Below are positions 2,491-41,994 of a DNA stretch of 42,189 nt, piece after piece (position 1 is the first letter of the stretch; the number at the start of each line of letters is the position of its first letter). The notes below the pieces were generated by a model that was not told the origin of the DNA, made no database searches, and saw nothing but the letters and a program-made list of their open reading frames with translations. This stretch comes from a virus (Duplodnaviria; Caudoviricetes): positions 1 through 42,189 of IMG/VR virus record IMGVR_UViG_3300037790_000136. The stretch is one strand, 5' to 3'. The translations under genes were made by a program, and so were the position numbers.

Positions 2491-2883
2491 TCAGACCTTG
2501 AACGCGGCTTTCGCCATGTGAAGCGGCCATGTCACCGGCCCGCCTTCGGTGATCGACATCCATGCCTGCCCGCCATGGACGGCTACGTGCTCGGCGCCGT
2601 CGATCTCGACCACCGCCAGATCCCCAAGCGCCGCACGGCCCCAGGCAATGGGCTTGACCAGTTCGGCGTAGAAGGTCACCAGCGACGTGTGCTTGCGCTT
2701 CCTCAGCGCCCGCTGCGCGCCCTTCAGTGTCTTGTAGGCACCGGCATAGGTCTTGACGTGCGACGTGCCTTGCAGCGCATCGATAACCTTGAGCCCGAGA
2801 AAGAAGCAATCGTTCACGCCATAGGCATAGGGCTCCGCCCGCGCGGTCTTGATAATCTCCGAGACAACCGCCGCCCTGTTCAT
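2491..2883 (-). CDS. NlpC/P60-like tail assembly protein (gpK-like, DUF6950-type)
   Basis: PYAYGVNDCF Cys motif, GDLAVV...HVAV His motif; lies between hub and tip genes; ATG 2883 overlaps upstream stop (ATGA). Confidence 0.8.
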   Translation of the reverse strand: MNRAAVVSEIIKTARAEPYAYGVNDCFFLGLKVIDALQGTSHVKTYAGAYKTLKGAQRALRKRKHTSLVTFYAELVKPIAWGRAALGDLAVVEIDGAEHVAVHGGQAWMSITEGGPVTWPLHMAKAAFKV

Positions 2884-3488
2884 CGCTGGCCCCATTCCTC
2901 GGGCCATGTCGGCGACGTGGCCACATATTCGAACGCCGTGTCGGTCGCGGAATTGTGCCGTGCCTGATCCTCGGCCGAGCGCTTCACATAAGTCTGGTCA
3001 CGGTAGCGCCGCGACAGCGTTTCAAGCTCGATGTCGAGTGTCACGGTCGCGATGCCGTTTTCATCGATGGCACCGGTCAGGAACTCGACGTCATTGATCT
3101 CATAGAAATGCGTGACCAGAACGCCCCGAACCTCGTCGGTCTCAGGATCTCCGCAAAGGTAGGACACGGTGACAGCCGCGTTGATGTAATCGTAGCTCTC
3201 GATGGCCGCTATTGCGTCATCCGCATTATTGGTCGGCACGTCGGAGAACGAAATCATCACGCTGGAGATCTGGTTTCCGAGCGCGGCCATGAGGCCATCC
3301 GAATTCAGGAACCGGTTCGGCAGGTACTCTTGTCCGGAATAGGTGAACGGCCTTCCGCCGATGTGATAGCCCACGGTCTTGTCCGGCGTTTCGCCTTTCC
3401 CCGGCAATTCGATCTTGATCAGCGGAATGACCTTGATCGCCCCGCTGTCGACTTGGTTGGCAACATCCGTGTCAAGCGATACGGGCAT
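2880..3488 (-). CDS. Minor tail / tail hub protein (gpL-like)
   Basis: Position between Dit-like and NlpC-like genes; C-terminal KRSAEDQ...DTAFEYVA...WG pattern; start chosen at MPVSLD. Confidence 0.7.
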   Translation of the reverse strand: MPVSLDTDVANQVDSGAIKVIPLIKIELPGKGETPDKTVGYHIGGRPFTYSGQEYLPNRFLNSDGLMAALGNQISSVMISFSDVPTNNADDAIAAIESYDYINAAVTVSYLCGDPETDEVRGVLVTHFYEINDVEFLTGAIDENGIATVTLDIELETLSRRYRDQTYVKRSAEDQARHNSATDTAFEYVATSPTWPEEWGQR

Positions 3489-3545
3489 GACTGGAAACCT
3501 CTCTGGATGAGAGTTGAAACGCGACAATCGTCTTCGGATTTGGCC

Positions 3546-3797
3546 TTAGAAAAGCCTCAGAGTGCCTGCCCCCAGATCGAGGACACTCCTGCCATCAGGG
3601 CTGGAGATACTACCTAAAGTGACCGAATGAACCACGGGCGCATTGATGTAGAGGTTCCCGTCATCACCTAAAGAAAAGGGATCGTAGGCGATGCCATCGA
3701 CCGACGGCAGCGCCTTTCCTTCAATCCCACTCAAGGAAGCCGCCACGGCAACAGATGGTGCCATTCCGAGCAGGGCAAGAAATGATCGTCTCTTCAT
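3546..3797 (-). CDS. Small protein with twin-arginine (Tat) signal, inserted in tail operon
   Basis: GGAGA RBS before ATG 3797; MKRRSFLALLGMAPSVAVAA has RRxFL, a hydrophobic stretch and AxA; 83 aa. Confidence 0.7.
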   Translation of the reverse strand: MKRRSFLALLGMAPSVAVAASLSGIEGKALPSVDGIAYDPFSLGDDGNLYINAPVVHSVTLGSISSPDGRSVLDLGAGTLRLF

Positions 3798-3833
3798 TGG
3801 TTTGTCTCCATAGGTTGAGAGCAGAGGCATGGT

Positions 3834-4484
3834 TCAGAAAAACACCTCTGTTGCCGAAAACGAGGCCGTGCGCGATCCCCATGCCTTAGGCATCGACCAG
3901 CCCGGATCGAGCAGCATCAGGCAGGACGGCTTTTCGAACTGGATTGTCGAATTCGCTGCCGTGAACACAGTTGTGTTGAGCGGGAAATCGATGGTGAGCG
4001 TGACCACGCCCGATCCATTGGCCGTCGCATCCGCCATCGCCATGTGAAGCGAGCGCACCGTCGAGGACTTGTTGATCTCGACCAGGCACCCCCGATTGAC
4101 CGCAAACGATGCCGGCAAGCCCGAAACCACAATGGTCCGGCTGTCCGTCACGGTGTCGAGAACCGCAGATCCGGTAAAGCTCCCGCCCCCTGCCTTCGTG
4201 CCCGAGAGCGGTGTCGATCCATATGCGCGAGGACGCTTCCGATAATAGTCGTGGCAGGCAAACACGTTGCCCCCCTTGGACGCCTCCGCAAAGAACGCAC
4301 TGACATCATCGATATGGGAATTGGTCAATTCAGCTGCTTGCGCAGCGTAGAGCCGCCAATAAGGCGTTCCGAAATCCGCAGTCTCAGTCGAACGGCCAAG
4401 CATCGCATTGCTGACCCTCGTATTGACCGGGCGCATGTCGAATTCAGCAAACGTCAGTTCGGGAAGCGTGAGAACGGCCATCAC
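3834..4484 (-). CDS. Distal tail protein (Dit-like)
   Basis: Directly after tape measure gene, overlapping its stop; beta-rich 216 aa; GTPYWR motif typical of this position. Confidence 0.7.
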   Translation of the reverse strand: MMAVLTLPELTFAEFDMRPVNTRVSNAMLGRSTETADFGTPYWRLYAAQAAELTNSHIDDVSAFFAEASKGGNVFACHDYYRKRPRAYGSTPLSGTKAGGGSFTGSAVLDTVTDSRTIVVSGLPASFAVNRGCLVEINKSSTVRSLHMAMADATANGSGVVTLTIDFPLNTTVFTAANSTIQFEKPSCLMLLDPGWSMPKAWGSRTASFSATEVFF

Positions 4485-6340
4485 AAATTCCCCACCCGGT
4501 TGTTGCGCTCATAGGTCTTGGCAAACTTTCCTTCGATCTCCGCCTTGGTTTCCGCAGCCTGTTGACGGATCGCGGACTTGATTTCCTCCGAAGAGACCGC
4601 TCCGGAGATGTGAAAGTGCTGCTCAACCTTGACTGATTGGCTAGTGGAGCCCTGCCCTCTTGAATGATCAATCACGGTTTCTTGCGGGTGCATCATGGCG
4701 AGAAATCCGCCTTTGCCGTCCAAGCCGCCGGAACGCGATCCGGAGCCGGTGTAACCGCCACCATCCATTGAGGGGAGCCCAATGAACGAACCGAAGGTCG
4801 TGTTTGGCTTGAACCCGCCACCGAGCAAACCACCGAACAGCGATCCAAAAATCCCACCTCCGCCGCCTTGGGCGAAAGGACCGGAGCCGAACAAAGCCGC
4901 TTCAAGCGCCGCCTTGGCGATGGACTTGGCGAGGTCCTCGAAGACATCGGCAAGGTTCTCGCCCTCGACAATCGCGTCAAGAATGCCGTTCTTCAGATCT
5001 TCGCTGATCTCGTTGAAGAACTGACCCGCCTCGCTGGCGTTGCGGTATTCTTCATCAATCTTGGCTACGGCGCGTGAATAGGTCTCGGCCGACAGATACC
5101 CCATTTCGTGCAGCTGCTGGAGATCGTCGATCTCGTCAGCATAGCGCTCAGCGGCGGAGCGTGTTTCCTCGTAGATCCTGGCGGCTTCGCGCATTTCGTC
5201 GGTGATGGTGTCTGTGGGCCGGGATGATCGCGACCGGGCCGCCCTCGGCTTTCTGGCGGGCTTCTCAGGATCGGGGAAATACCGTCCCGACCAGTAAGGA
5301 TCGTCCTCGAAATCGCGGGGATCACCTCGCACACCGTCGCCGCCCCAATTCATTCCGCCTGACAGTGAAGCCATACGGGCCATTTGGTCAGCAGTCGCAG
5401 CCGCGTTGCCTGCGGCCGCGCCCAAGGATTCCGCGAACCTAGCCGCGTCAAGCGCAGCGTTCAGGGCAGCCTTTTGCGCCTCCCTGAGTTCAGGTGGAAG
5501 ATCGGCCCCTTCTTCTGTAGCTCTTGCCAACTCGTCGGCGAGAGCTTCAGCGGCGTTCGCCACTTCCAATGGGCCATTTGCTTCCCGCATGTCTTCAAGC
5601 GCGTCACTGATCCGTGTCGCCTGAATGAGGGTCAAGCCGAACTGGTTTTCCAGAACCTGGACTTCGGACGCGATGGCCTGAACCGCGTCTGCCTGCTCGT
5701 AGTAGAGCGAAGCGAGATTGTAGCGATCAATGGATTCGGAAATGCCGTCCAGAGATCCCGCAATTGCCTCGCGAGTGGCTTCAAGAGATTCCTGAAACTC
5801 CAATTCGCGGATCTGGCGCATGATTTCATAGAGCCGCTGCGCCTGCTCAGCCTGAAGCCCAAACTCTTCGCGGAGATCGAGCATGGACAGCTTCGTGTTC
5901 TCGACCGTCTCCGCGTATGCCTTCAGGGATCCGCCGAGATCGCTGATCAGGTCGTCAAGTTCTTCGGCCCCCTCGCCCGATGAAATCATGTTGGCGATCA
6001 GAGGAAGCAGTGCACCGGCAGCAACACCGGCCGCGATTCCAATTGTCCCAAAGCCAAGCGTCAAATCCGGCAACTGAATTGCAAGCGCCTGCACCCAATT
6101 GCCTGTTGCGCTGGCCTGCTGAGCGACCTGCGAAAGCTGCATAGCCATCATGCGGGACTGCTGCCCGGCATAAATCGACTGCTTGCCGACCGCCTGATAT
6201 CCTTTGGCAAGTCCGCCGGTCGCCTTATTGGATCGCTGTTCCGTCCTTTCCGCCGTCGAGGCGAGACTATCGAGCGCAGCTTCGCCGGATTTCAGGCCAC
6301 GGCTATCTGCGGCAAGGACAAGGGTTGCAAAGTCAGACAA
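4481..6340 (-). CDS. Tail tape measure protein
   Basis: About 620 aa, Ala/Glu-rich and helical; N-terminal QLSQVAQQ...ALAIQLPDL lambda-type TMP motif; Gly-rich C-terminus GGGYTGSGSRSGGLDGKGGFLAMMHPQE; probable TTG start 6340 (track extends to 6358). Confidence 0.92.
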   Translation of the reverse strand: MSDFATLVLAADSRGLKSGEAALDSLASTAERTEQRSNKATGGLAKGYQAVGKQSIYAGQQSRMMAMQLSQVAQQASATGNWVQALAIQLPDLTLGFGTIGIAAGVAAGALLPLIANMISSGEGAEELDDLISDLGGSLKAYAETVENTKLSMLDLREEFGLQAEQAQRLYEIMRQIRELEFQESLEATREAIAGSLDGISESIDRYNLASLYYEQADAVQAIASEVQVLENQFGLTLIQATRISDALEDMREANGPLEVANAAEALADELARATEEGADLPPELREAQKAALNAALDAARFAESLGAAAGNAAATADQMARMASLSGGMNWGGDGVRGDPRDFEDDPYWSGRYFPDPEKPARKPRAARSRSSRPTDTITDEMREAARIYEETRSAAERYADEIDDLQQLHEMGYLSAETYSRAVAKIDEEYRNASEAGQFFNEISEDLKNGILDAIVEGENLADVFEDLAKSIAKAALEAALFGSGPFAQGGGGGIFGSLFGGLLGGGFKPNTTFGSFIGLPSMDGGGYTGSGSRSGGLDGKGGFLAMMHPQETVIDHSRGQGSTSQSVKVEQHFHISGAVSSEEIKSAIRQQAAETKAEIEGKFAKTYERNNRVGNL

Positions 6341-6392: not shown

Positions 6393-6833
6393 ATGAACGT
6401 TTTCCTGAAATTCATGGTTGGACTGACATGCGCCGCAGTGCTGGCCTATGTCGGGTATTTCTTCTATGGCGAGCGCCAAGCAACAATTGAGGCAAAGCGC
6501 CAACAAGAGATTGCTGATCGCCTCCGCGACCAACGCATTGAACGTGAACAGGCCCGTAAAGCAGCCATAGCCGCCGAGAGATCGCGACTAGAAGCCATCA
6601 GCGAGTTCGGATGCATTCGATCCGCAAACGCCGCTGTCGAAGCGCTTGATGATGGCAGCAGCGTTGACAGTGAAGCCCGATCCGACCTCAAGATTTGCGC
6701 CAAGTATCGGCTGATCACGAACTATCAGATATCGCGGCTTCTCGATGTCGGCGTTCTCGATCCGAAAGACCCTGTTCTGAGCGAGGAAGACGCCGCAAAG
6801 CAAATCGAAGCAGCGGGCGTCTCACTGCTCTGA
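6393..6833 (+). CDS. Membrane-anchored hypothetical protein (moron) on strand opposite the tail operon
   Basis: GAGGTG RBS; N-terminal TM segment (FMVGLTCAAVLAYVGYFF), coiled coil, two Cys; fills the chaperone-TMP gap. Confidence 0.75.
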   Translation: MNVFLKFMVGLTCAAVLAYVGYFFYGERQATIEAKRQQEIADRLRDQRIEREQARKAAIAAERSRLEAISEFGCIRSANAAVEALDDGSSVDSEARSDLKICAKYRLITNYQISRLLDVGVLDPKDPVLSEEDAAKQIEAAGVSLL

Positions 6834-19340: not shown

Positions 19341-21602
19341 TCATTCACATATCCAATAGGTAAAGGTTGATTTCCCCTTTGGGTTCTTGTCTTCCTGTAC
19401 CCCAAGCTGACCGCCCTCCGACAGGGATTTAAGCAGGTCTCCCAGATCACGATATCGAATGCTGTTCTTGAGAGATTGAACAATCTGTCGATGGGTTGCT
19501 TTCCCGCCGCGCTTGGCGATGCACCGCATGATTTTCTGTGCATTGGCCTGGTTCTCGTTTTCGGACATCCATTCGGCTGCGCCGTGGGCCATGAGGCGTG
19601 AAGACTGGCGAGCAAGGTTAATCCCGTACCGAACATCTGACAGTCGAACCTGATGATCTTCCATTCGGCCTATGGCGACAATCGAGGCAATGCGCAAAGC
19701 CATCTCGGCTGTGCGGACAAACAACTCAGCCTGATCGGGATTTTCCGACATGTAATCCTCAATCTCGTCGCGGAACGCCTTCCATGCGGCCATCGCGCCG
19801 TCCGGGCACCACCGCATTTCAATGATGTTGTTGTGCTCGGCAGGATTCATCCCGACATCGTTGCGATACGGCGTCGACATCTCGCCTTTCTGGAAATAGA
19901 TCGCGCGAAGCCCATCCTTGATTGATTGTGGCACTTCGAACTTGTTGGCGTCTGCCTCATCTCGCATGCGAACACGCTTCTCGCCCTCGATGAGCAGGAA
20001 CCGGTTCAATGTGCCGTCGCCAATCGCGCCGCCCTCAACCGCGGTATAGAACTGCTCATGGGTCGATCCCGCCAGAATCGACAGCGACGGCGCGTAAATC
20101 ACCTTCGTCTCGTCTTGAGCGTATTCCGGCGTGTCGAAGCGGCCAAAGCCTTTACCCCAGATCGCGCGCAGGACTTTCGGAATTGCCCGGCTATGAGGGC
20201 TGGAATTCTTGGCGAAAATCTTGCGCAGAACATCGCCGAATTCATCCTGTGGCGAAAGGCAAAGCGGCTGGCGCAAAAGCACCTTGATCAATCCCGTGCG
20301 GCTTTCAAACTCCTCCGGACCCAGATGAACGCCAAGGCCGGCAGCCGTCATGATCGTCTTCGGAATGTCGTTGATGGCCTCCTTTCCCTGTCCAGTCGGC
20401 GCCAGGCAGAGCACATAGAGCGCAAGGCCGCCGAAGTTCACGGGCGTTGAGAACTGCCGACCGGCAGCAGTACCGACAATCGCGAGAGCGCCTCCGATCG
20501 CCAGCGCCTTTTGCGGTTTGATGCTGGCCGACACCATCCATCGCGCGATCTCTCCTACCAGTCCGGGTGGATAGTCAATCGTCGTCACTTGTTCGACCGG
20601 ATTGTATGGTGCGACCACCTCCCCCGTCTCTGCATCGGCCAGCGTGCCGTCATGATGCTCGATCAGCCGCCGTGCAGCTTCCGCAGCCTCGACCGGATCG
20701 TAATCATGCTCATGGCCGCGATGCTTGATGGCAATGGCCGATAGGTCCGCGCCGTTCTCGCGCGCAAGCGCTGCCAGCGTGGCCAGGTTGACGCCCTGCC
20801 CCTTGAAGGATCTCCACTTGGATGCAAGCTCTTTCGTGCCCTTGTATTTCGAGCCCTGTGCGGACCAGTCATCGGCCACAGCAAGACCTGCAGAGGATCC
20901 GCCCGTAGCGGCATGGACGGCCATGAGGGCAGCAAGCCAGTCCTGATAGCCGGAGTCGGGGCTGATGTAGCTCAACAGCTCCGCGATCTCGTCAATTTCG
21001 ACTTGACTATGGCTGCCGGTATCAATTTTCTCGCGCACCGGCTCCAACGGCGTGGTGATCAGCGCGTGCAGCCAGTGCGGAATGACCGCCGCTTCCGACA
21101 GATCGCCCCATAACTCATAGATGCGGCCATCCGCCATGACCGTGCCGGGTGCGATGACATAGCCGCCATGGCCGCGGACGTTGATGCCCTTACCCCGCAA
21201 CAGGCCTTCCGAGTTGCCAAGGGTCTCGCCGTCACGCTGTCGGAAATAGTGATGATTGCCGGCCGATGGTGTTGCGACCAATGGCGCACTATCCGGGTTG
21301 AAACCATGATCGGCCATGATCTGGCCGAACGCTTCGACACCATCCGCGCTTTCATCGTGCCGGTCCGCATCGATGACAATCAGGCCCGACTTGGCGAGAT
21401 CGAGCCCGATGGCCGCATCCGGCCACTTCTGCCACCATTGCAGGATCTGCCGCTCACTGGTCGTGCTGGCCTCGCGCCATTTGATGAACGGCATGGGCCG
21501 CTTGGCCTTCTCACCGCCTGGCTGGCACGGAAAGACCGAGAAGCCAGCTGCCGCAAGGGCAAGGGCCGTCTCACGATTGGACGCCATTGTATCGGACATC
21601 AA
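19341..21602 (-). CDS. Bifunctional primase/polymerase (Prim-Pol + PriCT-2 + DUF3987-type helicase)
   Basis: VFPC...WWQKWPDAAIG...IVIDAD...TPSAGNHHYF...INVRGHGGYVIAPGT; PriCT YQDWLAALMA...WS..GSKY...KWRSF; P-loop APTGQGKE; DEFG. Confidence 0.9.
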   Translation of the reverse strand: MMSDTMASNRETALALAAAGFSVFPCQPGGEKAKRPMPFIKWREASTTSERQILQWWQKWPDAAIGLDLAKSGLIVIDADRHDESADGVEAFGQIMADHGFNPDSAPLVATPSAGNHHYFRQRDGETLGNSEGLLRGKGINVRGHGGYVIAPGTVMADGRIYELWGDLSEAAVIPHWLHALITTPLEPVREKIDTGSHSQVEIDEIAELLSYISPDSGYQDWLAALMAVHAATGGSSAGLAVADDWSAQGSKYKGTKELASKWRSFKGQGVNLATLAALARENGADLSAIAIKHRGHEHDYDPVEAAEAARRLIEHHDGTLADAETGEVVAPYNPVEQVTTIDYPPGLVGEIARWMVSASIKPQKALAIGGALAIVGTAAGRQFSTPVNFGGLALYVLCLAPTGQGKEAINDIPKTIMTAAGLGVHLGPEEFESRTGLIKVLLRQPLCLSPQDEFGDVLRKIFAKNSSPHSRAIPKVLRAIWGKGFGRFDTPEYAQDETKVIYAPSLSILAGSTHEQFYTAVEGGAIGDGTLNRFLLIEGEKRVRMRDEADANKFEVPQSIKDGLRAIYFQKGEMSTPYRNDVGMNPAEHNNIIEMRWCPDGAMAAWKAFRDEIEDYMSENPDQAELFVRTAEMALRIASIVAIGRMEDHQVRLSDVRYGINLARQSSRLMAHGAAEWMSENENQANAQKIMRCIAKRGGKATHRQIVQSLKNSIRYRDLGDLLKSLSEGGQLGVQEDKNPKGKSTFTYWICE

Positions 21603-22216
21603 AGCGTCACCTTCCCGGCGCCATCCAAATCCATCATGAAGGCGTTGTATTCAGCATCAAGCTCCCTTTGCTCATATGGCCGCCCATGATTCTGGTGAAA
21701 CCCGCGATCTGCTTCAGCTTGCCTTCTAGCTTTCACCGCCGATTGAAAATCTTCGAAAGACCCAATCCGGGCATACCTGCCATTCACATCAATTCGAGCT
21801 ATCCATTTTTTCTCTTTTTTCGAGTAGCTTACTCCGGTCACGCCGCTTGAATTGTTTTTCCGGATGGGCTGATTCCGCATATTTTCTTGGTGCGTGACTG
21901 CCCTCAGATTGGATATTCGATTGTTGGAAGGGTCTTGATCTATATGATCAATGACGAGATCGGACGACACAATTTCCCCATAGTAGATAGCCCAAGCGAT
22001 GCGATGTGAGGGGTACCTGACGCCGTCGATGGCAATTCGATAGTATCCATCTGGTTTGAGATATCCCGCGACTTTGCCGGCATGTTTGGCATTCCATGAA
22101 TTGCAAACCCTGGCGCTGGAAAAATGGCTTTCTGGACGCCTTAGCCATGTCAGCGTTCCGCTTTCGGCGCAGTAGGATAGAACGGATTTGAGGTAGCTTA
22201 CGGACAGCATTTTCAT
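21599..22216 (-). CDS. HNH endonuclease with AP2-like domain
   Basis: HRIAW...IDHIDQDPSNNRISNLR..T..EN..N and NSSGVTGVSY...KWIARI...IGSF; lower GC than flanks. Confidence 0.9.
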   Translation of the reverse strand: MKMLSVSYLKSVLSYCAESGTLTWLRRPESHFSSARVCNSWNAKHAGKVAGYLKPDGYYRIAIDGVRYPSHRIAWAIYYGEIVSSDLVIDHIDQDPSNNRISNLRAVTHQENMRNQPIRKNNSSGVTGVSYSKKEKKWIARIDVNGRYARIGSFEDFQSAVKARRQAEADRGFHQNHGRPYEQRELDAEYNAFMMDLDGAGKVTL

Positions 22217-22608
22217 TCACCTCTCATGTCGGCAGCTAGCGCGCGTCGATATCCGGCAATGATGCGTCTATTGAACTCAAACCATTGGTCAGGAGTGAGC
22301 GCCGCGAAGTCGGTCTTGCCGATGGTTTCCAGAAGCTCGATCCCGGCATCCCCGCCCTTGGCGGCGGCCATGCTCTCGATCCGGCTGAATTCATCCTGCT
22401 TCATGGAGTAGATTGCCTTCGCGGCTTGAATGCATTTCGGGTCATCGCAAACCCACAGGATTTTGCTTGCGCCGCGGGATGAGTATCCGAAGCCACAAGC
22501 CGCACGGGCGCAGACGCCGCAGATGGCGGGATCGAACTGGTCAATCACAAATGTCCGCCAGTGCTCGTGGCTGCCTGATGGGCGCGCTGGTGTGATGGAT
22601 TGTTTCAA
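22213..22608 (-). CDS. Hypothetical protein (DUF6511-like, Cys-containing)
   Basis: CGVC...C....C N-part; GKTDFAALTPDQW C-part common upstream of primases in such prophages; start uncertain. Confidence 0.6.
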   Translation of the reverse strand: MKQSITPARPSGSHEHWRTFVIDQFDPAICGVCARAACGFGYSSRGASKILWVCDDPKCIQAAKAIYSMKQDEFSRIESMAAAKGGDAGIELLETIGKTDFAALTPDQWFEFNRRIIAGYRRALAADMRGE

Positions 22609-22744
22609 TGGTCGTCACGCGAAAGTCGCACGACGTGCATTGCTTGCGCCTCTTGACCCCGCCACGCGTCGGCCGACTATCGATCGTCTTGAACGATCTT
22701 TTCCCGCACGCCGGGCAGTGCAGGCCTTTTGGCTTCTCGCTCAT
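22541..22744 (-). CDS. NrdR-type zinc-ribbon protein
   Basis: CPACG...TIDSR...KRRKQCTSCDFRVTTIE matches the NrdR N-terminal Zn ribbon; no ATP-cone. Confidence 0.75.
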   Translation of the reverse strand: MSEKPKGLHCPACGKRSFKTIDSRPTRGGVKRRKQCTSCDFRVTTIETIHHTSAPIRQPRALADICD

Positions 22745-23073
22745 GACCTGACCTCCTGACATCGAGCCATATCGCGGCGCTTCTGGTTGGTCTTGTGAGT
22801 GACGATCTCGGTGTGATCTGGATTGACGCACATTCGATTGCGGCAAAGGTGGTCGAGCTGCTTCTTGCCGGGGATGAAGCCATAGACATGCGTGGCTGCG
22901 ACCCGATGAACTGCGACGGTCTGGCCGCCAAGCTTCATCCGCGGATAGCCGCCGCCGCGTCCAGTGCCGGAATGTGTCCCATTCCATAGCCAGCAAGGTG
23001 TCTCAAGCGGCCCTGGCGTGATCGTCACGTTCTCCTTGATACGTGACCAGATTTCAGATCGCCGCTCGCTCAT
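22741..23073 (-). CDS. HNH endonuclease
   Basis: CWLWNG...GYP...VHRV...LDHLCRNRMCVNPDH..VT...N. Confidence 0.88.
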   Translation of the reverse strand: MSERRSEIWSRIKENVTITPGPLETPCWLWNGTHSGTGRGGGYPRMKLGGQTVAVHRVAATHVYGFIPGKKQLDHLCRNRMCVNPDHTEIVTHKTNQKRRDMARCQEVRS

Positions 23074-23582
23074 GACTGCACCGACATCTGCCGATGAAAC
23101 TCGCAATAGGGTTTTCCAGGCGCATGGGCCTGGCACCCGCAAAAACGGGCATGCTCGCCGAAACCCTCGACCGGCCATTTGCACTCGTCGCGACCTAGGT
23201 CGAGAAGTCCGATCAGGCGAAATTCGGGTTTGGCGATCGGCTCTGACGCGGGCTTGACCTCTTTTGGCGCCTGTGGACGCGATTTTGGTCGACGCGGTGA
23301 AATTGCCGCCTTGATGGTTGAAGTGCGGACAATCCGAGGCGACCTGGCGCTTGGCGATCTTGGCGGTCTTGGCTGACGTGATCCACGCGACGGACCTCTC
23401 GGGAGCGGGCATGAGGTCAACTGGTCAGCCTTGCGGTGATAAATGCTTATGATGCCGTTACGCACCGCGCCGGGGATCAATGACGCAATCTGAGCCGATG
23501 AATAGCCGGGCTCGTAGACCTTCTTGATTGCCTCGATCTTCTCGGCAGAATTCATGAGCCGCCAGTCCTTTCGAACGGTCAT
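23070..23582 (-). CDS. GcrA-family regulator
   Basis: N-terminal GYSSAQIA...RNGIISIYHR and C-terminal LLDL...CKWPV...FCG...PYCEFH, both hallmark GcrA motifs. Confidence 0.85.
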   Translation of the reverse strand: MTVRKDWRLMNSAEKIEAIKKVYEPGYSSAQIASLIPGAVRNGIISIYHRKADQLTSCPLPRGPSRGSRQPRPPRSPSARSPRIVRTSTIKAAISPRRPKSRPQAPKEVKPASEPIAKPEFRLIGLLDLGRDECKWPVEGFGEHARFCGCQAHAPGKPYCEFHRQMSVQS

Positions 23583-23920
23583 AGCTGCATTCCCTTGTAG
23601 AGGGCCGGATTGGTGACCCGTTTGCTGATGTCGTAGCTGGTCAGCGGCGGGTTGCCCGTGATGGCGGAATAGCGAGCCAATCCGCTGAGGACGGTAGTGT
23701 GGTCGCGATCGAAAATATCCCCGATCTGCGGAGCGGACAGCGACGGATTTCCGGCTTTGGTCCGGTACATCGCGGCCCATCGCGCCATGATCACATCGCT
23801 GCGCTTGCGACGGCTGAAAATCAGATGGATCGGAACATCGTGGCGTTGCGCTTCCTCAATGACGATCTGACGAACACGCGACGGCAGTGCGCTCATGACT
23901 TTCTGCTCATAGGCGTTCAT
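23579..23920 (-). CDS. DnaA C-terminal (domain IV)-like HTH protein
   Basis: ARWAAMY...SAPQIGDIFDRDHTTVLSG matches the DnaA domain IV signature; no AAA+ domain. Confidence 0.82.
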   Translation of the reverse strand: MNAYEQKVMSALPSRVRQIVIEEAQRHDVPIHLIFSRRKRSDVIMARWAAMYRTKAGNPSLSAPQIGDIFDRDHTTVLSGLARYSAITGNPPLTSYDISKRVTNPALYKGMQL

Positions 23921-26085
23921 TCCGCAGCCTCCCGCGCCTGGGCCAGATGCGGCACGTTGGCAGCCGTGATTGCGGCGGCGAGCGGCGGGCACACGCTGTT
24001 GCCTGCCCGGCCCACCTGGTCCGATTTCGAAAACACGTTGCCGTCCGCATCCCGGTCGATCTCGTAATCTGCGGGAAACCCTTGTGCGTTGAACAGCTCG
24101 CGCGGGGTCAGCATCCGCATGCCGATATCCACCATCACCAGCGTGACTGACACGCCTGTTTCGAGCGCCACGTCCAGCGTCACGAATTCGCGGTCATCCC
24201 AGAAGCCATGGGCGCGCAGGAAGTCCGCCACCTCGCGGGCCCGGGCGTGGTGCTCCGGCGCGAATGGCGGTGCGGAAAGCGCCGCGGTGGCGATGCAGAA
24301 CCGGTCCTTCGTGGTCACGGTGTGGAGCGGATCGCCCGGCTCCTGCCCGTCCCCTGTGCCGTAATATTTGGTCAAGGCTCCGGCCACGAGGGCCGATTGC
24401 CCGCCGCCCGTGCAGGCCACGCGCGAAGGTTCGTCGGCAGGGCTCGCACGCCGTGCGCTGCCCTTCATCGAAAGCATGCTGGCCGCCACAACGCCCTGCT
24501 GCGCCCCGGATGCCGTGACGGTCGAGGCTGGTTCGTTCGCACCCCGGCCAGGGTTCACGCCACCGATGCGTCGGCTGTCGTTGTTGTGCTGGGCCATGAA
24601 CGCCGCGATCGGAGCATGTTTCACACCGCCCGCCACAACCGTGCCCAACGGCGCGTCCGGATCAAGCGAACGCGGCGCCTGCCCTTCCCTCTCGCCATAA
24701 CCCGTCTGCGCCAACGAGGCCGCAACACACGTCAACCCGGCCCCGCCGGCGGTCACCGTGTGGGCAGGCTGATCGGCACCCTGAAACGGCTTTCCGGCGT
24801 TGCGCATGGTCATCAGGTGCGGCGCGATCACCGCGTTCTGGTCCTTGGCCGATGCCGTCACGGTGTGCAACGGGTCGGCAGGATCTCGCACCGCCCCGCC
24901 CTGCTGGGCATAGGTCATCACCGGCGATACAACCCCGAGAGGCGCAGCGCCGCCAGGCCGCTCCTTGAAACTGTTCGCCGTCACGGTCGGGGAAGGCTCA
25001 TCCATACCCGAACCTGTTGCGCCGGAGTTGAACCGGGTCAGTGATGGCGCAATGACGGCGTGGCGGTTTTCGGTCACCACCGTCTTGAGTGGGTCGCGCG
25101 CATCGGCGCTGCGGTCTTCGCCGCCATTGCCCTTGCCGTAATAGGCAGCGAGCGACGGGGCGATCACCGCTTTCTCACCCCGGTTCGCGCCGGTCACGGT
25201 CCGCATCGGTTCGCCCGCATCTTCCAGCCGGGCCCCGTGGGTGAGGTTCACCAGGAACGGTCGCATCGCGTCCAGCACATAGCGCCGGATGCCCCGCGCC
25301 ACTCGCGCCTGTGTCGCGCTGGCCAATGGCCGCACGGCCCTCAAATTGTGCTTGAGCAGGATCTCCGCCTTGGTGTCGAAGATCGAGGGGCACGGCAAGG
25401 ACCAGTCGATCACGTCGCGCCCGGCAGTCAGCCACGGCTTCAGCTTGCCGGTCTTCACTTCGTCGCTGTCGGGCGCCCCGTGCGTCGGCTCCGGCCAAAC
25501 GATTCTTTTGCCGTCGAACCGGATGATGATGAACACGCGGCGGCGGATCGTCGGCGCGCCATAGTCGCAGGCGCGCAATTCCTTCCATTCCATCCTGCCG
25601 CCGAGCTTTTTCAGCTTCCGGCACCAAAGCTCGAAGGTCTCGCCGCGCCGCTCCGGATCGGGCACCAGCCCCTTCTCCGTCGTGATCAGCGGCCCCCAGG
25701 TGCGGAACTCCTCAACATTCTCGATCGCCACCACATCGACACGCCCGCCCGATTTCTGGATCCGCTCGATCCAGCCCGGAATGATCCATGCAAGGTCGCG
25801 GATGTTCCGCTGCACCGGCGCGCCGCCCTTGGCCTTGGAGAAGTGCTTGCAGTCGGGCGAGAACCAGGCAAAGCCGATATGGGCGCGATTGAAATGGTCG
25901 AGAGGGTCGACCTTGTAGACGTTCTGGCACAGATGCACGGACTCCGGATGGTTGACCGAATGCATGGCCACCGCCACCGGATCGTGATTGATCGCGAAAT
26001 CCGGCGAGCGCCCAAGTGCCATTTCAATTCCGGTCGAGGCTCCACCACCTCCGGCAAAGCAGTCGATTATGATTGGCATTTTCAT
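23917..26085 (-). CDS. DNA (cytosine-5) methyltransferase with repeat-expanded variable region
   Basis: Motif I FAGGGG, IV SPDC, VI ENV, VIII RRR, IX RMLTPREL..AQGFP, X GNSV. Confidence 0.93.
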   Translation of the reverse strand: MKMPIIIDCFAGGGGASTGIEMALGRSPDFAINHDPVAVAMHSVNHPESVHLCQNVYKVDPLDHFNRAHIGFAWFSPDCKHFSKAKGGAPVQRNIRDLAWIIPGWIERIQKSGGRVDVVAIENVEEFRTWGPLITTEKGLVPDPERRGETFELWCRKLKKLGGRMEWKELRACDYGAPTIRRRVFIIIRFDGKRIVWPEPTHGAPDSDEVKTGKLKPWLTAGRDVIDWSLPCPSIFDTKAEILLKHNLRAVRPLASATQARVARGIRRYVLDAMRPFLVNLTHGARLEDAGEPMRTVTGANRGEKAVIAPSLAAYYGKGNGGEDRSADARDPLKTVVTENRHAVIAPSLTRFNSGATGSGMDEPSPTVTANSFKERPGGAAPLGVVSPVMTYAQQGGAVRDPADPLHTVTASAKDQNAVIAPHLMTMRNAGKPFQGADQPAHTVTAGGAGLTCVAASLAQTGYGEREGQAPRSLDPDAPLGTVVAGGVKHAPIAAFMAQHNNDSRRIGGVNPGRGANEPASTVTASGAQQGVVAASMLSMKGSARRASPADEPSRVACTGGGQSALVAGALTKYYGTGDGQEPGDPLHTVTTKDRFCIATAALSAPPFAPEHHARAREVADFLRAHGFWDDREFVTLDVALETGVSVTLVMVDIGMRMLTPRELFNAQGFPADYEIDRDADGNVFSKSDQVGRAGNSVCPPLAAAITAANVPHLAQAREAAE

Positions 26086-27722
26086 TCCGCGGCCTCCAAT
26101 TCCTTTCGCGCCGGGAATGACCGGCCGACGATGTCGATGTGTTTGCGATTCTTCTTGTTCGGTTCGACGCTGATCGTGACGGGCATGATCAGTTCATCGA
26201 CACGATGCAGGGCTTCGTCAGTTGATTTGGGATAGGGCGAGGATCCGCCATGGGTTGCCCACCACTGCATTGCAGCCTGGCAGCGGGTCATGCCGTGCTC
26301 GAACGCGATCCATTCGCGGTATTCGGAAATGCCCGCGATGAAGGTGACCTTGATGCTGTCTGGCATGCCTATTTTCTGATATCGATCGAGACGCCAATCC
26401 ACGACCGGGATCTGTTGCGGCGCGACCTTCTCACCGGACAGGATGCCGACCGACTTTTCGGCCTCGGCTTCATGCTTGGGCTTTTCCTCGCGTGGGAACT
26501 CGTGACCGCAAATCTTGCAGGTGATCGAGTTGATGGCGATCAGTTCCTGACAGCCCGGGCATTCCTTGGCTCGGACGCTGTCGACCGGAACCTTGCCCGT
26601 CTCGCTATCCGGGTTGAAGGTCTTGCTTTCAGCTCCTACCGAGTCGACCGGGCCGTGACGACGGATGTTGCCGGCATAGTCGAGCACAAGGCAGTTTTCC
26701 TTGCCTGACGACAGGCGAGTGCCGCGGCCGACGATCTGCACGTAGAGCGATGTCGAGAGCGTTGGGCGGAGCATCACGACCAGATCAACGGCAGGCGCAT
26801 CGAAACCGGTTGTGAGAACCTGCGCATTGGTCAGGCATTTGATTTCGCCTGCCTTGAACCGTCGCAGTATGCTGTCACGCTCGCCGGATGGCGTGTCGCC
26901 GGTCACTGTCTCGCATGATATGCCCTGTCCGCGCATGGCATCTCGGACATTAAACGCGTGTTTGACGCCCGCGCAGAAGACGAGCCACGAGCGGCGCGAC
27001 TTTCCAAAGTCACAGATCTCGGCCACGGCTTGCGCAGTGATCTTGTCGGAGGCCTTTTCAAGCTGTGCCGGGACGAACTCACCGCCCCGACGCTGGACGG
27101 CAGACACGTCGATCTCGGTCAATCCTGCCTTTGACACCAGCGGCGAGAGAAAGCCGTCCTCGATGCCACGGGCGATGCCGTAGGTGTAGACCGTCTCGTC
27201 AAAGAGCCGTGACGTTCCCGCATCGAGCCGTCCGGTGTCGAGCCGGTAGGGCGTGGCCGTGAAGCCGCAGACCCGGGCATGGGGTGACCGGGCATGAATG
27301 TCGTCGAGAAGCTGGCGATACATGCCCTCGCCCTTGGCCGGGACCAGGTGCGCCTCGTCGATGTGGATCAGGTCGCGATCGCCAAGCAGATCGGCGCGGC
27401 GAAACACCGACTGGATCGAGGCGAACGTGATGCGATGGTGCGCGTCACGCTTCCCGAGGCCTGCCGAGTAGATCCCGGCCGGAGCATCCGGCCAGACCTT
27501 AAGGAGTGCTGCGAAGTTCTGGCCGACAAGCTCGCGGACATGGACCAGCATGAGGATCCGCATCCGCGGATATTCTTCCATGAGCGATCGGGTCAGTTCG
27601 GCGATCACCATGCTCTTGCCGGTGCCGGTGGCCATCTCGACCAACGGGTTGCCGCCGCCCTTGGCCCAGTAATCGGTCACCGCCTTGATTGCATCTTGCT
27701 GATATGAGCGAAGGGCGATCAT
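26082..27722 (-). CDS. SF2 DEAH helicase (RadD/YejH-like) with C-terminal Zn ribbon
   Basis: LRSYQ, ATGTGKS, DEAH, TATP, TTGFD, QIVGRGTR, CPGC...CKICG. Confidence 0.92.
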   Translation of the reverse strand: MIALRSYQQDAIKAVTDYWAKGGGNPLVEMATGTGKSMVIAELTRSLMEEYPRMRILMLVHVRELVGQNFAALLKVWPDAPAGIYSAGLGKRDAHHRITFASIQSVFRRADLLGDRDLIHIDEAHLVPAKGEGMYRQLLDDIHARSPHARVCGFTATPYRLDTGRLDAGTSRLFDETVYTYGIARGIEDGFLSPLVSKAGLTEIDVSAVQRRGGEFVPAQLEKASDKITAQAVAEICDFGKSRRSWLVFCAGVKHAFNVRDAMRGQGISCETVTGDTPSGERDSILRRFKAGEIKCLTNAQVLTTGFDAPAVDLVVMLRPTLSTSLYVQIVGRGTRLSSGKENCLVLDYAGNIRRHGPVDSVGAESKTFNPDSETGKVPVDSVRAKECPGCQELIAINSITCKICGHEFPREEKPKHEAEAEKSVGILSGEKVAPQQIPVVDWRLDRYQKIGMPDSIKVTFIAGISEYREWIAFEHGMTRCQAAMQWWATHGGSSPYPKSTDEALHRVDELIMPVTISVEPNKKNRKHIDIVGRSFPARKELEAAE

Positions 27723-27913
27723 CCCAACACCTCCCGCACAGCGCTTTGCAGCGCCTTGGCGACGGCGAGCTGGTTCTCGATCTGCCAGCGGCGTTTCCAG
27801 TAGCCATCGCCGATCTGCTTTGCGGCCATGGCAGTTTCGATGAGCTGGTTTTCGCGCGCCAGTTCCGCCTCGATCGTCGAGACCTTGGCGTCGATTGGAT
27901 CGGTGATTTTCAT
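27719..27913 (-). CDS. Small hypothetical protein
   Basis: MKITDPIDAK..., overlapping both neighbours. Confidence 0.6.
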   Translation of the reverse strand: MKITDPIDAKVSTIEAELARENQLIETAMAAKQIGDGYWKRRWQIENQLAVAKALQSAVREVLG

Positions 27914-28818
27914 GCCGCGTCTCCCGAAAATGTGTCGAGAAGATCGCCGCCGAATTGGGTGTCGGACATGTGCGACAAGTTCTTGATGGCCTGCCGGAAA
28001 TAGGCCTCTTTCAACTCGAACCCGACGAACTTGCGACCCGCCTTGAGCGCGCCCCATCCTTCCGAGCCGATGCCCATGAATGGCGAGAGCACGATGTCGT
28101 TCGGATTGGACCAGAGCCGGATTGCGCGCTCGATCAGATCAAGCTGCAGCGGGCAAAGGTGCTTCTCGTCCTTGTCGTCTTTCGCGGTACGGACGTTGAG
28201 GACATTGGTCTGGTTGATGTCCATCCAGACAGGCGACGCCCATTGCTGCCACTGCGAGACCGGAAATTCGCGTGCATCCTTGCCGACCGGGTCGATCAGC
28301 TTCTCGTCGGACGGCGTCTTGCGGAAAACCAGCAGGTAATCGGGCAGGCCCTGGCGCGATCGCGCGCTGTCCTTGCGCAGCGTCTTGTACAGAAGCCCAT
28401 GCGCCTTGGTGCGCTGCATCTCGACGACAGGGTCTTTCCAGATCGTGATCCGGCTGTGATAGGTCCATCCTGCCTCGGCATGGGCGCGGATGATATCGCC
28501 CGGCATATCCCAGAGCCCGCCAACGCCGTGACTGACCTTCGTGCGCGGCATATCAGTGCAGTGAACAGCAGTCAGCCGGCCCGACTTTGTGACCCGAAAC
28601 AGATCGCGGACTAGAAAGCCGTAATGCTCAAGGAATTCGGCATCATTTGCCGCATTGCCCATGTCTCGCTCGCTGTCCGAATAGATGAACAGGTGCGAGA
28701 ACGGCGGGGAGTAGATCGAGAAGCCTACGCTTTCGGACGGGATTTCGCGGATGCCTTCGACGCAATCAGCATTGTATGCCGTGAAGTTGTCGCCGTGATG
28801 GGAATCAAGCACTTTCAT
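27910..28818 (-). CDS. N4-cytosine/N6-adenine DNA methyltransferase (beta-type order)
   Basis: Catalytic SPPF near N-terminus; H.CP and SPFMGIGS AdoMet motif near C-terminus. Confidence 0.9.
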   Translation of the reverse strand: MKVLDSHHGDNFTAYNADCVEGIREIPSESVGFSIYSPPFSHLFIYSDSERDMGNAANDAEFLEHYGFLVRDLFRVTKSGRLTAVHCTDMPRTKVSHGVGGLWDMPGDIIRAHAEAGWTYHSRITIWKDPVVEMQRTKAHGLLYKTLRKDSARSRQGLPDYLLVFRKTPSDEKLIDPVGKDAREFPVSQWQQWASPVWMDINQTNVLNVRTAKDDKDEKHLCPLQLDLIERAIRLWSNPNDIVLSPFMGIGSEGWGALKAGRKFVGFELKEAYFRQAIKNLSHMSDTQFGGDLLDTFSGDAA

Positions 28819-30232
28819 GGATCAACCACGCCGGAAGGCGCGCCTCTGATTTCGGTTGATAGGATGTCTTGCGGATGTGGGATTGGTGAGCGTTGCGCAT
28901 CGCGATCTGCATCTCGCGCTTCATGGCCAGATGGTCGCCAGCCTTGCGGTCGATAACGCGCTTGATGGCCGCCTCGGTGTCAGCCATGGCGATATGCACC
29001 TCGACTTCGCGCTTTTGCCCGAAGCGCCATGCTCGCCTTATCGCCTGGTAATAGTTCTCATAGGAGAAGCTGAGCCCGGCAAAGGCCATGCGGGCGCATT
29101 GCTGCCAATTGAGGCCATACCCCGCGATTGAAGGCTTTGTGATGAGGACTCGCAGATCCCCACGGGTGAAGGCGTCCAGCCGTTCCTCTTTCAGGGAAAG
29201 CTGCATCGATCCGCGCACTTCCAATGCGTCCGGAATGCGTTCTACCACAGCATCGGCGTCGTAGTCGGTGTCGCACCAGATCAGCCACTGCTCTTCCGGA
29301 TCACTGTCGATGCACTCGGTGACAAGATCGGCCCGGTCTTCACTGGTCAGGCGCTTTTCTGCATGGATGGCCGTCGCGGACGTGTCGGGCATGCGGAACA
29401 GGCGCTGCTGTCCGATGAATTTGCCGTTCTTTTCCTCACCGGCATCGATGAACCTGTCCGCCTTGACGGTGTGCTCATAGGTCCGGATTTCGGGCAGAAC
29501 ATAGCCATCATCGGGAAAGCCAAGATCGGACGGCAGAGAAACGCACCGCGACCATGACGCCACCCAGCGCCAGAAATCGGAAACGGCATGGCCCTTGATC
29601 CGCCATGTTCCGGTGTTGGCCGTGTCATTGATAAACCATCGGGGCAGCATCTCGTCACGGCGCATCACGCCAAGGAACTCGGCATGCGTTCCAAGCTCGG
29701 TGTGATCGTTCGGTGCCGGCGTGGCGGTGCAGCAAAGCCGATAGGGCGTCTGCGAGAACAGTTGGATCAGCTTGCGCGTGGTGACGCCAGCAAAGCTCTT
29801 GAGGATCGAACTTTCATCCAGGATCACGCCGCCGAACCGATTGACGAGAAAGTTGTCGACCCGCTCGTAATTCGTGATGTAGATCCGGGCCGGACCTTCG
29901 ATCTCGTCGGCGGTGCGGATGTATTTGGCGTCGATGCCGAAGCGCCGGGCCTCGCGTTCGTGTTGCGGACCGACTGCGAGGGGCGCAAGCATCAGGACGG
30001 GCTTGTTTGTCTTCTCGACAACCACCCTGCCCCATTCCAGAGCCGAGAACGACTTGCCGAGTCCGGTGTCGAGAAACATGGCCGCGCACCCGGCATGCAG
30101 GGCGAACTCGGTTACGGCGCGCTGGTGCGGGAACAGATCGGGGTGCAGGTCGGGGATCTGATCGAAACCGCGCGGGGTGAAGGCCACGGCCTTGCGGGCG
30201 ATCAGATCTTCATAGGACGGGTGCGCGTTCAT
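28805..30232 (-). CDS. SNF2-like helicase paired with the methyltransferase
   Basis: DTGLGKS, LDESS, TATPAPND, GLNWQ, QAIRRAWRFGQ. Confidence 0.9.
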   Translation of the reverse strand: MNAHPSYEDLIARKAVAFTPRGFDQIPDLHPDLFPHQRAVTEFALHAGCAAMFLDTGLGKSFSALEWGRVVVEKTNKPVLMLAPLAVGPQHEREARRFGIDAKYIRTADEIEGPARIYITNYERVDNFLVNRFGGVILDESSILKSFAGVTTRKLIQLFSQTPYRLCCTATPAPNDHTELGTHAEFLGVMRRDEMLPRWFINDTANTGTWRIKGHAVSDFWRWVASWSRCVSLPSDLGFPDDGYVLPEIRTYEHTVKADRFIDAGEEKNGKFIGQQRLFRMPDTSATAIHAEKRLTSEDRADLVTECIDSDPEEQWLIWCDTDYDADAVVERIPDALEVRGSMQLSLKEERLDAFTRGDLRVLITKPSIAGYGLNWQQCARMAFAGLSFSYENYYQAIRRAWRFGQKREVEVHIAMADTEAAIKRVIDRKAGDHLAMKREMQIAMRNAHQSHIRKTSYQPKSEARLPAWLIHESA

Positions 30233-31374
30233 TCCGCCGCCTCCAGACGAGGCGACGGGGCGAGCAGGGTCAATGCTTCGACCGCGTTCTTGCTGTCAGA
30301 TATCCTCATTGGCATCTGGATTGAATTGAATCCGTCGCGCTCCGATGTGATGCGGATTGGAGCGCCCGGATCGACAAAGCGCATGGTCAATGATCCGGAG
30401 CCGCGATGCGCAGCTGCTATGTCTCGCAGATATCGGCCATTGACTGAGAAGATGAACGGATTATCGGAGACGCCGGATACGTCGGCCGGGACCAGTTCGC
30501 GGGACTTGCCGATGCCGGTGTTGCCGGAGGAAACAGCCACCCGGCCATCTGCCGATATCGCAAAGTCGGTCCATTTGGTGCGACTATCGATGACGGTCGC
30601 CGATACCCGCTTGATTGCGGCCACCAGTCGCTTCACATCGACCACCATCACGGGCGCATTGTCCGCAATCCTGGGAATGACGCGCTGATAGTCCGGATAG
30701 GTGCCGTCGATCAGCTTCGACCGGAGCACGACGCCCGGCAGATCGAATACGATGACGTTCTCGCCAAAGCTGATCTGCGACGGCCCACCGAGAGCAAGCA
30801 GCGCCTCGACAGCCATGCGGGGAATGATCGGTCTTGCCTTGGCCTCAATTGCGACCGCGACATAACCGAGACGATGCCCGTCAGTCGCGACCAGTCTGCC
30901 GTCATAGATGCAAACGCCGTTGAGATAGTACCGGGTTTCCTCGGTCGACATGAAATGCGACACGAAGCGGAGCTTGTCGAGAAAGCCTTCCGGAGCCTTG
31001 AAGGTGCGTTTGATCGGTCTGTTTACCGGGTCCGGGAAGTCCTCGGCAGGCAGCGTGTTGAGCGTGTAGAGCCCGCCCTCGAAAGCCAGCGTTGCGCCGC
31101 GATCCTTTTCCGAGGTGATCGTCACGACCATGTCTCTGGGCAAATTTCCCACGATTGCGGACAGGACACGATGATCGAGGCAGATCGAACCCTTGGCGGT
31201 CGATGTCGGGATTTTCGCCTTGATCTCGATATCCAGATCGGTGGCGGTCATGGTATCGCGACGGATCCGGACATGCGACAGGATCGGGACTGTGTAATAT
31301 CGGCGGATCGCTGGCTTGACGGCTTTCAGAGCGGCATGCAGCGCGCCCGCTGTGGTGGCGAGGTTGAATGTCAT
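30229..31374 (-). CDS. dnaN: Phage-encoded DNA polymerase III beta sliding clamp homologue
   Basis: ATDLD, STEETRYYLNGV, VATDGHRL, SKLIDGTYPDYQRVIP, C-terminal MPMR. Confidence 0.9.
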   Translation of the reverse strand: MTFNLATTAGALHAALKAVKPAIRRYYTVPILSHVRIRRDTMTATDLDIEIKAKIPTSTAKGSICLDHRVLSAIVGNLPRDMVVTITSEKDRGATLAFEGGLYTLNTLPAEDFPDPVNRPIKRTFKAPEGFLDKLRFVSHFMSTEETRYYLNGVCIYDGRLVATDGHRLGYVAVAIEAKARPIIPRMAVEALLALGGPSQISFGENVIVFDLPGVVLRSKLIDGTYPDYQRVIPRIADNAPVMVVDVKRLVAAIKRVSATVIDSRTKWTDFAISADGRVAVSSGNTGIGKSRELVPADVSGVSDNPFIFSVNGRYLRDIAAAHRGSGSLTMRFVDPGAPIRITSERDGFNSIQMPMRISDSKNAVEALTLLAPSPRLEAAE

Positions 31375-31760
31375 GCGACCTCCTCGGCGACAAAGCCGGG
31401 ATGCTTCGCGCTCATATGGTTTTTCAGGTTTTGGAAAGAGCGATTGCAGCATGGGCAGACCCCTGCGGCGGCTCGGTTTTTCAGTCTGGTGATCTGCCCC
31501 TTACGGGCCGATGCGGAGCGTTCGGCGGCTTCGCGAAGACTGCGCTCGCGGGCGGCATTTTCCTCAAGGCGCGCGGCCTCCTGCTTGAACCGGTCACGTT
31601 CGCGACGGATACGGTCGTGCTCGCTCTCGGTGTAGGATTGAGAGTGTCCGGCCGGGCAAAAGAAGCTCTTGCCATCGCGTCGGCGTGCGTCGTCGAACGA
31701 CTTCGGAACGGCGAAGCGAATGAAACATGCGCAGCATTCCTGAACGTAGAGGTCGCTCAT
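31371..31760 (-). CDS. Hypothetical Zn-finger / coiled-coil protein
   Basis: CC.C...FCPAGH, coiled coil, CPCC...H....H C2H2-like end. Confidence 0.7.
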   Translation of the reverse strand: MSDLYVQECCACFIRFAVPKSFDDARRRDGKSFFCPAGHSQSYTESEHDRIRRERDRFKQEAARLEENAARERSLREAAERSASARKGQITRLKNRAAAGVCPCCNRSFQNLKNHMSAKHPGFVAEEVA

Positions 31761-33147: not shown

Positions 33148-33359
33148 CACGCCACCTCCCCACGCCGCATGACCTGCGCTGTCTTGCTGATCAATGCGCG
33201 AGCACGGGCACGATTGAAGGCATGGAAGCCCTCGACCTCGTTTGCAGCGACCAGATCGGCCGGAGCGAGAAGGAAGTCGGGCGTCTTGGTGAGGTTCGGA
33301 TTGGGCTGGTCAGGGCGCTCATAATCGCGCCTCTTGCAAGGCAAGGCTTCGCCGTTCAT
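33147..33359 (-). CDS. Small hypothetical protein
   Basis: AAGGA RBS; TGATG coupling to next gene. Confidence 0.55.
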   Translation of the reverse strand: MNGEALPCKRRDYERPDQPNPNLTKTPDFLLAPADLVAANEVEGFHAFNRARARALISKTAQVMRRGEVA

Positions 33360-33407
33360 TGTCGCGGTCCTTTCGCGGTCAATGTGAAAATCGTTGATGG
33401 TGAAGGT

Positions 33408-33447: not shown

Positions 33448-33454
33448 TGGATCA

Positions 33455-41989: not shown

Positions 41990-41994
41990 CTCGA

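Follow-up and report, generated by a model that had tools for sequence, protein, structure and literature searches.

A phage mini-protein joining a predicted twin-arginine leader to a tail-fibre end, with a possible role as exported bait

The mini-gene P0001 fuses a predicted twin-arginine (Tat) leader to a short homologue of the central tail fibre's C-terminal end, here called the tip. This combination had been proposed from the DNA of a single phage; it holds for P0001 and is also the trait of a family. In this unnamed family a Tat leader is joined to pieces of virion proteins, and we found no description of such a protein in the open-licence literature. At the core of its function probably lies the use of the payload as bait, followed by removal through Tat.

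The mini-gene and its insertion site

The stretch of DNA that was analysed (the window) is a whole 42-kb virus record of 42,189 nt, whose minus strand encodes the late operon of a siphophage (Table 1). The named relatives of the window phage are Rhizobiales prophages, and a weak integrase match of the ORF at 39478-40620 (E = 0.012) suggests that the phage is temperate. The original prediction of a separate gene with its own ribosome-binding site was borne out by an 83-aa ORF starting with MKRRSFL and a GGAG motif 8 nt before the ATG. In the homologues of P0001 the equivalent methionine is the start, according to a comparison of homologue starts; we therefore regard the longer 94-aa ORF and the 72-aa database call P0002 as using other starts. 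The gene also interrupts the Dit-hub junction, as had been claimed, with a gap of 345 nt versus overlaps of 8, 8, 8 and 1 nt in four of four relatives. The GC3 of the mini-gene was 0.57 and that of six late genes 0.65-0.78, a difference that a more recent insertion would produce. Between Dit and hub there is no room for a partner gene in the layout of a defence/counter-defence pair.

Table 1. Positions of the mini-gene, its parts and its neighbours in the window.
Feature	Position	Strand	Basis
Mini-gene P0001, 83 aa: twin-arginine leader, linker and tail-tip C-terminal homology	3546..3797	-	ORF, profile matches
Ribosome-binding site GGAG, 8 nt 5' of ATG	3806..3809	-	Sequence
Predicted Tat leader, P0001 residues 1-19: K-R-R-S-F-L, uncharged stretch, A-V-A	3741..3797	-	TatFind-like rule
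Variable linker, P0001 residues 20-39	3681..3740	-	Poorly conserved columns; lower model confidence
Payload, P0001 residues 40-83, homologous to last ~45 residues of central tail fibre, common Rhizobiales type	3549..3680	-	Profile comparisons
345-bp insert between Dit and hub	3489..3833	.	GC3 and comparison with relatives
Distal tail protein (Dit), upstream neighbour	3834..4484	-	PHROG 1302, E 1.6e-29
Hub-like tail protein, downstream neighbour	2880..3488	-	PHROG 11779 and 2048
Central tail fibre (tip), cut by contig end	1..2484	-	PHROG 5616 and 31

Several other features of the window were recorded. A 146-aa gene on the opposite strand (6393-6833, +), with a hydrophobic N-terminus and located just upstream of the tape measure gene, is a possible moron; it had no significant Pfam, PHROG or PADLOC family. 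A replication region at 19341-34971 (-) encodes a primase-polymerase, a C5 methylase, two helicases, a DNA polymerase III beta clamp and an AAA protein, and an HD-domain gene lies at 40688-42034.

The twin-arginine leader

The twin-arginine signal claimed for P0001 was recovered. The leader has K-R-R-S-F-L at residues 2-7, 21 uncharged residues and A-V-A at residues 17-19, and export was predicted by a TatFind-like rule. By its R-R-x-F-L motif, uncharged h-region and A-x-A site, P0001 is a predicted Tat substrate. The same rule was passed by 121 of 124 minis with twin arginines (RR minis), and A-x-A was present in 70 of 94 minis. Conservation of the arginines, on which the earlier claim depended, was complete within a set chosen with a leader-bearing profile: all 75 aligned members have R3 and R4. 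The P0001 leader matched neither TIGR01409 nor PF10518. The TIGR01409 cut-off was passed by 3 of 10 minis, and PF10518 was matched by only 10 of 75 members at E 0.05. P0001 has no cysteine and hence no lipobox cysteine.

The payload and the ends of tail fibres

The original prediction had aligned the mature part of P0001 with the tip of its own phage. The register of this alignment was right, but the comparison limited to the window was not significant, with a local score of 26 that was matched by 1,723 of 5,000 shuffles. Another record of the same phage, L001, supplies 25 further residues of the tip fibre, which brings it to 853 aa in total. Against this completed tip the resemblance was modest (score 44, reached by 15 of 5,000 shuffles). 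The claim that P0001 resembles the phage's own tip in particular was not supported, as the own tip ranked only 44th of 61 and 58th of 84 among tip ends. The window phage's own fibre ends in a rarer type, the FDQL type, and nt 1-60 of the window contain the segment that had been compared.

A much clearer result was obtained when 61 tip ends, without any minis, were made into a profile: the mature part of P0001 scored 16.6 bits versus 6.6 for the best shuffle, and none of the 5,000 shuffles reached 16.6. A profile of six tips missed P0001. The real signal of the payload is that of the family of tip ends and not of the own tip, and the payload resembles the common Rhizobiales tip type. A comparison of 75 minis with 20 tip ends gave 99.1% (E = 1e-18). 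Among 24,131 ORFs there were 35 short matches to the tip profile (E < 1); apart from two fragments of tips and two tip-end duplicates without a leader, these were twin-arginine minis. A Gly/hydrophobic core is kept across the 75 members, of which the last ~30 residues are best retained, and the payload surface carries family-specific charged substitutions (R in 67% at column 53, D in 80% at column 62). As a separate gene, P0001 does not belong to a full-length virion fibre, of which the phage has one already, the 853-aa fibre completed above.

A comparison of L005 (5929-8442) with positions 1-270 of the window showed two different phages, with tips that are 44% identical, sharing an identical tip C-terminal protein sequence. 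The L005 record breaks at the same residue as the window, and the records L001-L003, too, come to an end no more than 39 nt from the stop codon of the tip. This points to a tip-end module that is shared and swappable and that causes assemblies to break.

Resemblance to the own tip and origin of the mini-genes

The position of the own tip among 84 tip ends was determined for the carriers in a panel from which L168 and the truncated L120 were left out and in which L001 served as a proxy for the cut L005 tip. All six copies adjacent to a tip gene, from three lineages, ranked their own tip high (1, 2, 5, 3, 4 and 2). Ranks of the 17 copies located away from the tip gene were spread from 4 to 80 with a median of 38; five distal copies ranked their own tip 4-9, and the window gene 58. 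Statistical avoidance of the own tip was looked for and not shown (median 38 of 84, in a panel with an excess of common-type tips). In each of the four phages whose tip is of the FDQL type, the own tip ranked 58-69 of 84, in one of them via the proxy tip. The one mini of the FDQL type, in L069, had the window's tip type as its best match; the L069 phage's own fibre has a built-in C-terminal domain and no such tip end.

The stop of the tip gene nearly always overlaps the downstream gene, which often encodes a protein of ~500 residues (PHROG 21060). Minis next to the tip gene take over this overlap, and they are similar to the tip of their own phage. Tip-end duplicates that lack a leader follow the tip gene directly in L143 (10218-10286, 22 aa), L100 (10231-10350, 39 aa) and L014 (6204-6422); in HMSP1 gp46 the duplicate is fused to a module that stands alone in L009. 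We infer from these arrangements that mini-genes may be born by duplication of the 3' end of a tip gene, followed by capture of a leader and then by spread as a mobile gene.

A family of mini-proteins and their payloads

P0001 was assigned to no Pfam, PHROG, NCBIfam or PADLOC family. A word-index search with P0001 returned only P0001 itself, and a search with a 3-member alignment returned four proteins. A profile of five minis, which biases the search towards the leader, found 154 proteins at E 0.001 among representatives at 50% identity. Of 149 that were analysed, 131 were short and 124 had the twin arginines, and 80 of these 124 scored at least 10 bits on the tip-only profile. A DNA pattern of the leader alone retrieved 69 viral loci with 65 distinct ORFs, of which 18 carry a tip end. 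Altogether, 94 of 183 distinct RR minis carry a tip end and five carry the C-terminal motif of the tape measure, while none of 3,660 shuffles reached the bar.

A further 46 payloads were long enough to test, and nine of them matched a long ORF (0 of 230 shuffles). Six of the nine correspond to the point where the shaft predicted for the fibre begins, 246 residues from the fibre end, two to the tape-measure C-terminus (one annotated, one by position and length) and one to a 455-aa ORF on the same contig, read as the large subunit of terminase. The remaining 37 matched nothing in a database that, for this test, was rich in late genes. By sequence, then, all nine identifiable other payloads would be pieces of virion-assembly proteins, and the payloads are apparently not random. 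The mini in L075 has its own tape measure as its best match.

Some members deserve separate mention. In L062 (7616-8041, -) the leader is fused to a piece of ~95 residues of the same 455-aa ORF (E 2.6e-8). Leader ORFs in L033, L050 and L065 (7781-8041, -) end in a Y-D-E-N-G-x-L-R motif, which presumably recalls another class of J-like fibre end. L048 has two twin-arginine leader genes in tandem (692-943 and 1083-1334).

The mini-gene is optional: six of 64 tip loci have one within 10 kb (four of the six being seeds), as does one of another 50 complete records. In Sinorhizobium an orthologous set is frequent, with a cluster of 14 sequences, one of which occurs on 37 contigs. Cultured carriers are phi2LM21 (p49) and BiPBO1 (gp85), both proteins being annotated as hypothetical and both phages being temperate or prophage-derived; RHph Rhizobium phages have the tip only, in one place each. 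The available text of PMC4729917 does not mention BiPBO1 gp85, and PMC12429752 does not mention twin-arginine or Tat. The term 16-3 immB was not met among the matches listed in the literature search, and the fibre end could not be resolved from the available text of PMC12724387 or PMC11945409.

Gene placement, expression and selection

Minis occupy at least eight junctions: before the small terminase gene, before the major tail gene, between chaperone and tape measure, tape measure and Dit, Dit and hub, hub and DUF6950, DUF6950 and tip, and tip and downstream gene. A named late gene lies on the same strand in 24 of 26 leader genes examined (the other two were not annotated), and the stop codon overlaps the next start in 13 of 28. 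Many terminase-side minis have their stop overlapped by a 65-aa gene (PHROG 37208; L049 8261-8458 and relatives), a possible partner. A scan for sigma-70-type sites revealed no promoter or terminator at 3300-4600. This result, together with late-strand placement and the stop/start overlaps, implies that the mini-genes are likely expressed with the late genes, in the lytic phase. The L179 homologue was present in 13 RNA runs; the contigs of four runs fill all 30 bins and speak neither for nor against expression. In each of the runs X1 and X3, L179 7300-13300 is present as two sequence variants, one with a mini-gene that is 9 nt shorter, which suggests two related prophages in one sample.

Among five Sinorhizobium-type orthologues, dN/dS was 0.26-0.48 for the whole gene and 0-0.23 for the leader, and for the payload it was 0.33-0.56 in nine pairs and 1.21 in one (few sites, and pairs that are not independent). 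Terminase-side payload pairs also had dN below dS. The leader is far more constrained than the payload. These substitution rates show purifying selection in one orthologous set and in the terminase-side pairs, with weak selection on the payload.

Fold of the payload and the downstream tip protein

Tip ends of 100 residues matched PDB chains of J-like fibres (23gd, 7z4b, 9l9p and 25vf) with E values from 8e-12 to 8e-4; the last 48 residues alone gave a PDB match only at E 0.37. The monomer model of P0001 had a pLDDT of 78 and a pTM of 0.31, without a viral fold match at E 0.001. In the ESM Atlas, a feature match of 0.83 and a top structure row in the PF09327 cluster were both below the tool's bars. 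The corresponding region of the F7 pyocin is described in the available text of PMC12874032 as a beta-prism and an intertwined beta-helix, predicted to dock two downstream proteins.

When P0001 residues 36-83 were modelled in three copies together with L179's downstream tip protein, the complex scored 0.44 and the best control 0.00. Among solved pairs, 116 of 157 reached the mark, as did 2 of 215 mismatched ones; at 0.60 or below these were only 18 solved pairs and both mismatches. The runs agreed in at least 89% of contacts, with a partner pLDDT of at least 84. The alignment held 49 real tip ends, and the pass may reflect the tip rather than the P0001 copy. The models thus lend weak support to the idea that the payload forms a trimer and retains a docking face.

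In these phages the tip end seems to be a docking site for the separate downstream protein and not the receptor-binding part. The PHROG 21060 protein (~500 aa; L179 10225-11739 and 39 other loci) is coupled to the tip gene and shows three short motif repeats by eye; in other phages its place is taken by relatives of 120-160 aa that have one such motif. The L179 protein was modelled with confidence (pLDDT 88, pTM 0.90), and had no PDB sequence match and no Foldseek match at E 0.001. All VIA-align Z scores were below 8, with weak matches to T5 pb5 (Z 5.6, rmsd 5.2, 277 aligned) and to the Pam1 receptor-binding domain (Z 6.1, rmsd 2.4, 64 aligned). We consider it a candidate receptor-binding cap.

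Discussion

How might such a fusion serve a phage? Every plausible partner of the payload, be it the nascent fibre, the downstream tip protein or an inhibitor of the fibre end, is cytoplasmic, and hence the leader most likely removes a complex. P0001 would be made with the late genes and would bind cytoplasmic proteins that recognise the fibre end. An anti-tail defence protein bound in this way would be carried by the Tat leader to the membrane or periplasm, and real tails could assemble; the leader might also keep the copy out of the phage's own tails. The presumed partner, which has no signal of its own, could be exported by the hitchhiker route. In PaoABC a signal-bearing subunit carries signal-less folded partners in this manner, according to the available text of PMC4273604 and of a review of Tat (PMC6708511). 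The known hitchhiker cases are host enzymes exported for use, whereas the purpose proposed for P0001 is the removal of a captured protein.

That the prey are anti-tail defence proteins is possible, and we favour it tentatively, because self-copies are tolerated under selection, expression seems to be late and the Tai tail-assembly inhibitors act on the tip region. Self-copies are indeed common, as the tip-adjacent copies and the tape-measure mini of L075 illustrate. The available text of PMC11364771 places the action of Tai at the fibre-end region and describes the Ati counter-defence as lytic-only. Neither an export leader nor fibre homology is described there for Tai and Ati, which form a defence/counter-defence pair in a non-contiguous operon; P0001, in contrast, is itself a fibre-end homologue on the late strand, without a fixed antisense partner or paired layout. 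P0001 had no match in PADLOC 2023, a library older than PMC11364771, and it is by these descriptions that Tai/Ati is set apart. P0001 is also distinct from the C-terminus of J-like central fibres (PHROG 5616; PF09327), in that the homologous segment stands alone as a 45-residue piece behind a leader.

Several results speak against the bait explanation. None of 25 minis and neighbours matched PADLOC 2023, so no defence partner was found. A decoy of the phage's own tip would not predict that P0001 mimics a different tip type from that of its phage, nor the wide spread of own-tip ranks among distal copies. Export could take the bait away from where it is needed, and the leader lacks the TIGR01409 and PF10518 matches, as do most members for PF10518. 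Finally, selection on the payload is weak, 37 of 46 other payloads are without a match and the modelled complex may owe its pass to the tip. The identifiable payloads of other members are also pieces of virion-assembly proteins (fibre end, shaft, tape measure and terminase). Avs, CapRel and DSR2 have terminase, capsid and tail tube as their triggers. It is conceivable, though still doubtful, that the family forms a modular system in which one mobile leader is combined with short pieces of virion-assembly proteins, such that Tat expels bound immune proteins or rival tail parts.

The same machinery could instead be aimed at other phages, which is the main rival explanation and the one to which the mimicry of a foreign tip by P0001 points. 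As a trimer, the payload would dock the receptor-binding protein of a competing phage or be built into the fibre that this competitor is making, and the complex would be taken to Tat by the leader. Phages induced at the same time or infecting the same cell would be left with tails that lack a tip, and a mismatched own tip would be spared. The low own-tip ranks of all four phages with FDQL-type tips (one via the proxy) agree with this, as does the FDQL-type mini of L069 in a phage whose fibre lacks such an end. So do the weak pass of the complex with a foreign downstream protein, the retention of the last ~30 payload residues, the tip-end and shaft payloads, which would form trimers, and the temperate or prophage-derived nature of the cultured carriers. 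Tip-adjacent copies, however, are like their own tip and overlap the phage's own gene downstream, so that self-poisoning would be expected. Five distal copies also rank their own tip highly, statistical avoidance of the own tip is not seen in a panel enriched for the common type, and no lysogen promoter was seen, which makes a trap for rivals rather unlikely. Nevertheless, a mimic that acts on tail assembly, the second idea of the original prediction, remains a live rival. We find it improbable that the payload is a mere passenger, either of a leader that does the work by occupying Tat or the membrane or of genes that are tolerated by-products of tip-end duplication. Leaderless duplications in L143, L100 and HMSP1 gp46, the stronger constraint on the leader, the 47 of 65 leader ORFs without a tip end and the presence of the gene in only 1 of 50 further records would fit a passenger. 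Such a payload would not be expected to have a dN lower than its dS in 9 of 10 orthologous pairs as well as in the terminase-side ones, to keep its Gly/hydrophobic core across 75 members or, where identifiable elsewhere, to come from probable assembly proteins, nor would the family be expected to have spread to at least eight junctions.

Superinfection exclusion from the periplasm, in which the exported mature peptide would block a receptor or DNA entry, is quite improbable. The leader is of an export type, and tip-adjacent copies stand directly before a putative receptor-binding gene; the genes of Llp and Rtp45 likewise lie beside receptor-binding genes, and Cor is another superinfection-exclusion lipoprotein. 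A periplasmic peptide cannot reach the outer face, though, and the payload seems to be a docking end rather than a receptor-binding part, by analogy with F-pyocins, which weakens the original proposal of an exported receptor-tip decoy. Moreover, shaft and terminase pieces would not be expected in the periplasm, and no promoter of its own was found. In the available text of 10.1101/2025.07.07.663478, Llp of T5 and Rtp45 are small periplasmic exclusion factors, exported phage lipoproteins whose binding to the receptor takes place from the periplasm. P0001 lacks the cysteine to which a lipid could be anchored, has its origin in a virion protein and is not a member of this group.

If the explanation by bait and export is true, phages in conflict would be disposing of captured proteins through an export machine, a mode for which we found no description in the open-licence literature. 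The payloads would then map the virion surfaces that are attacked, and their partners would name unknown anti-tail defences in rhizobia.
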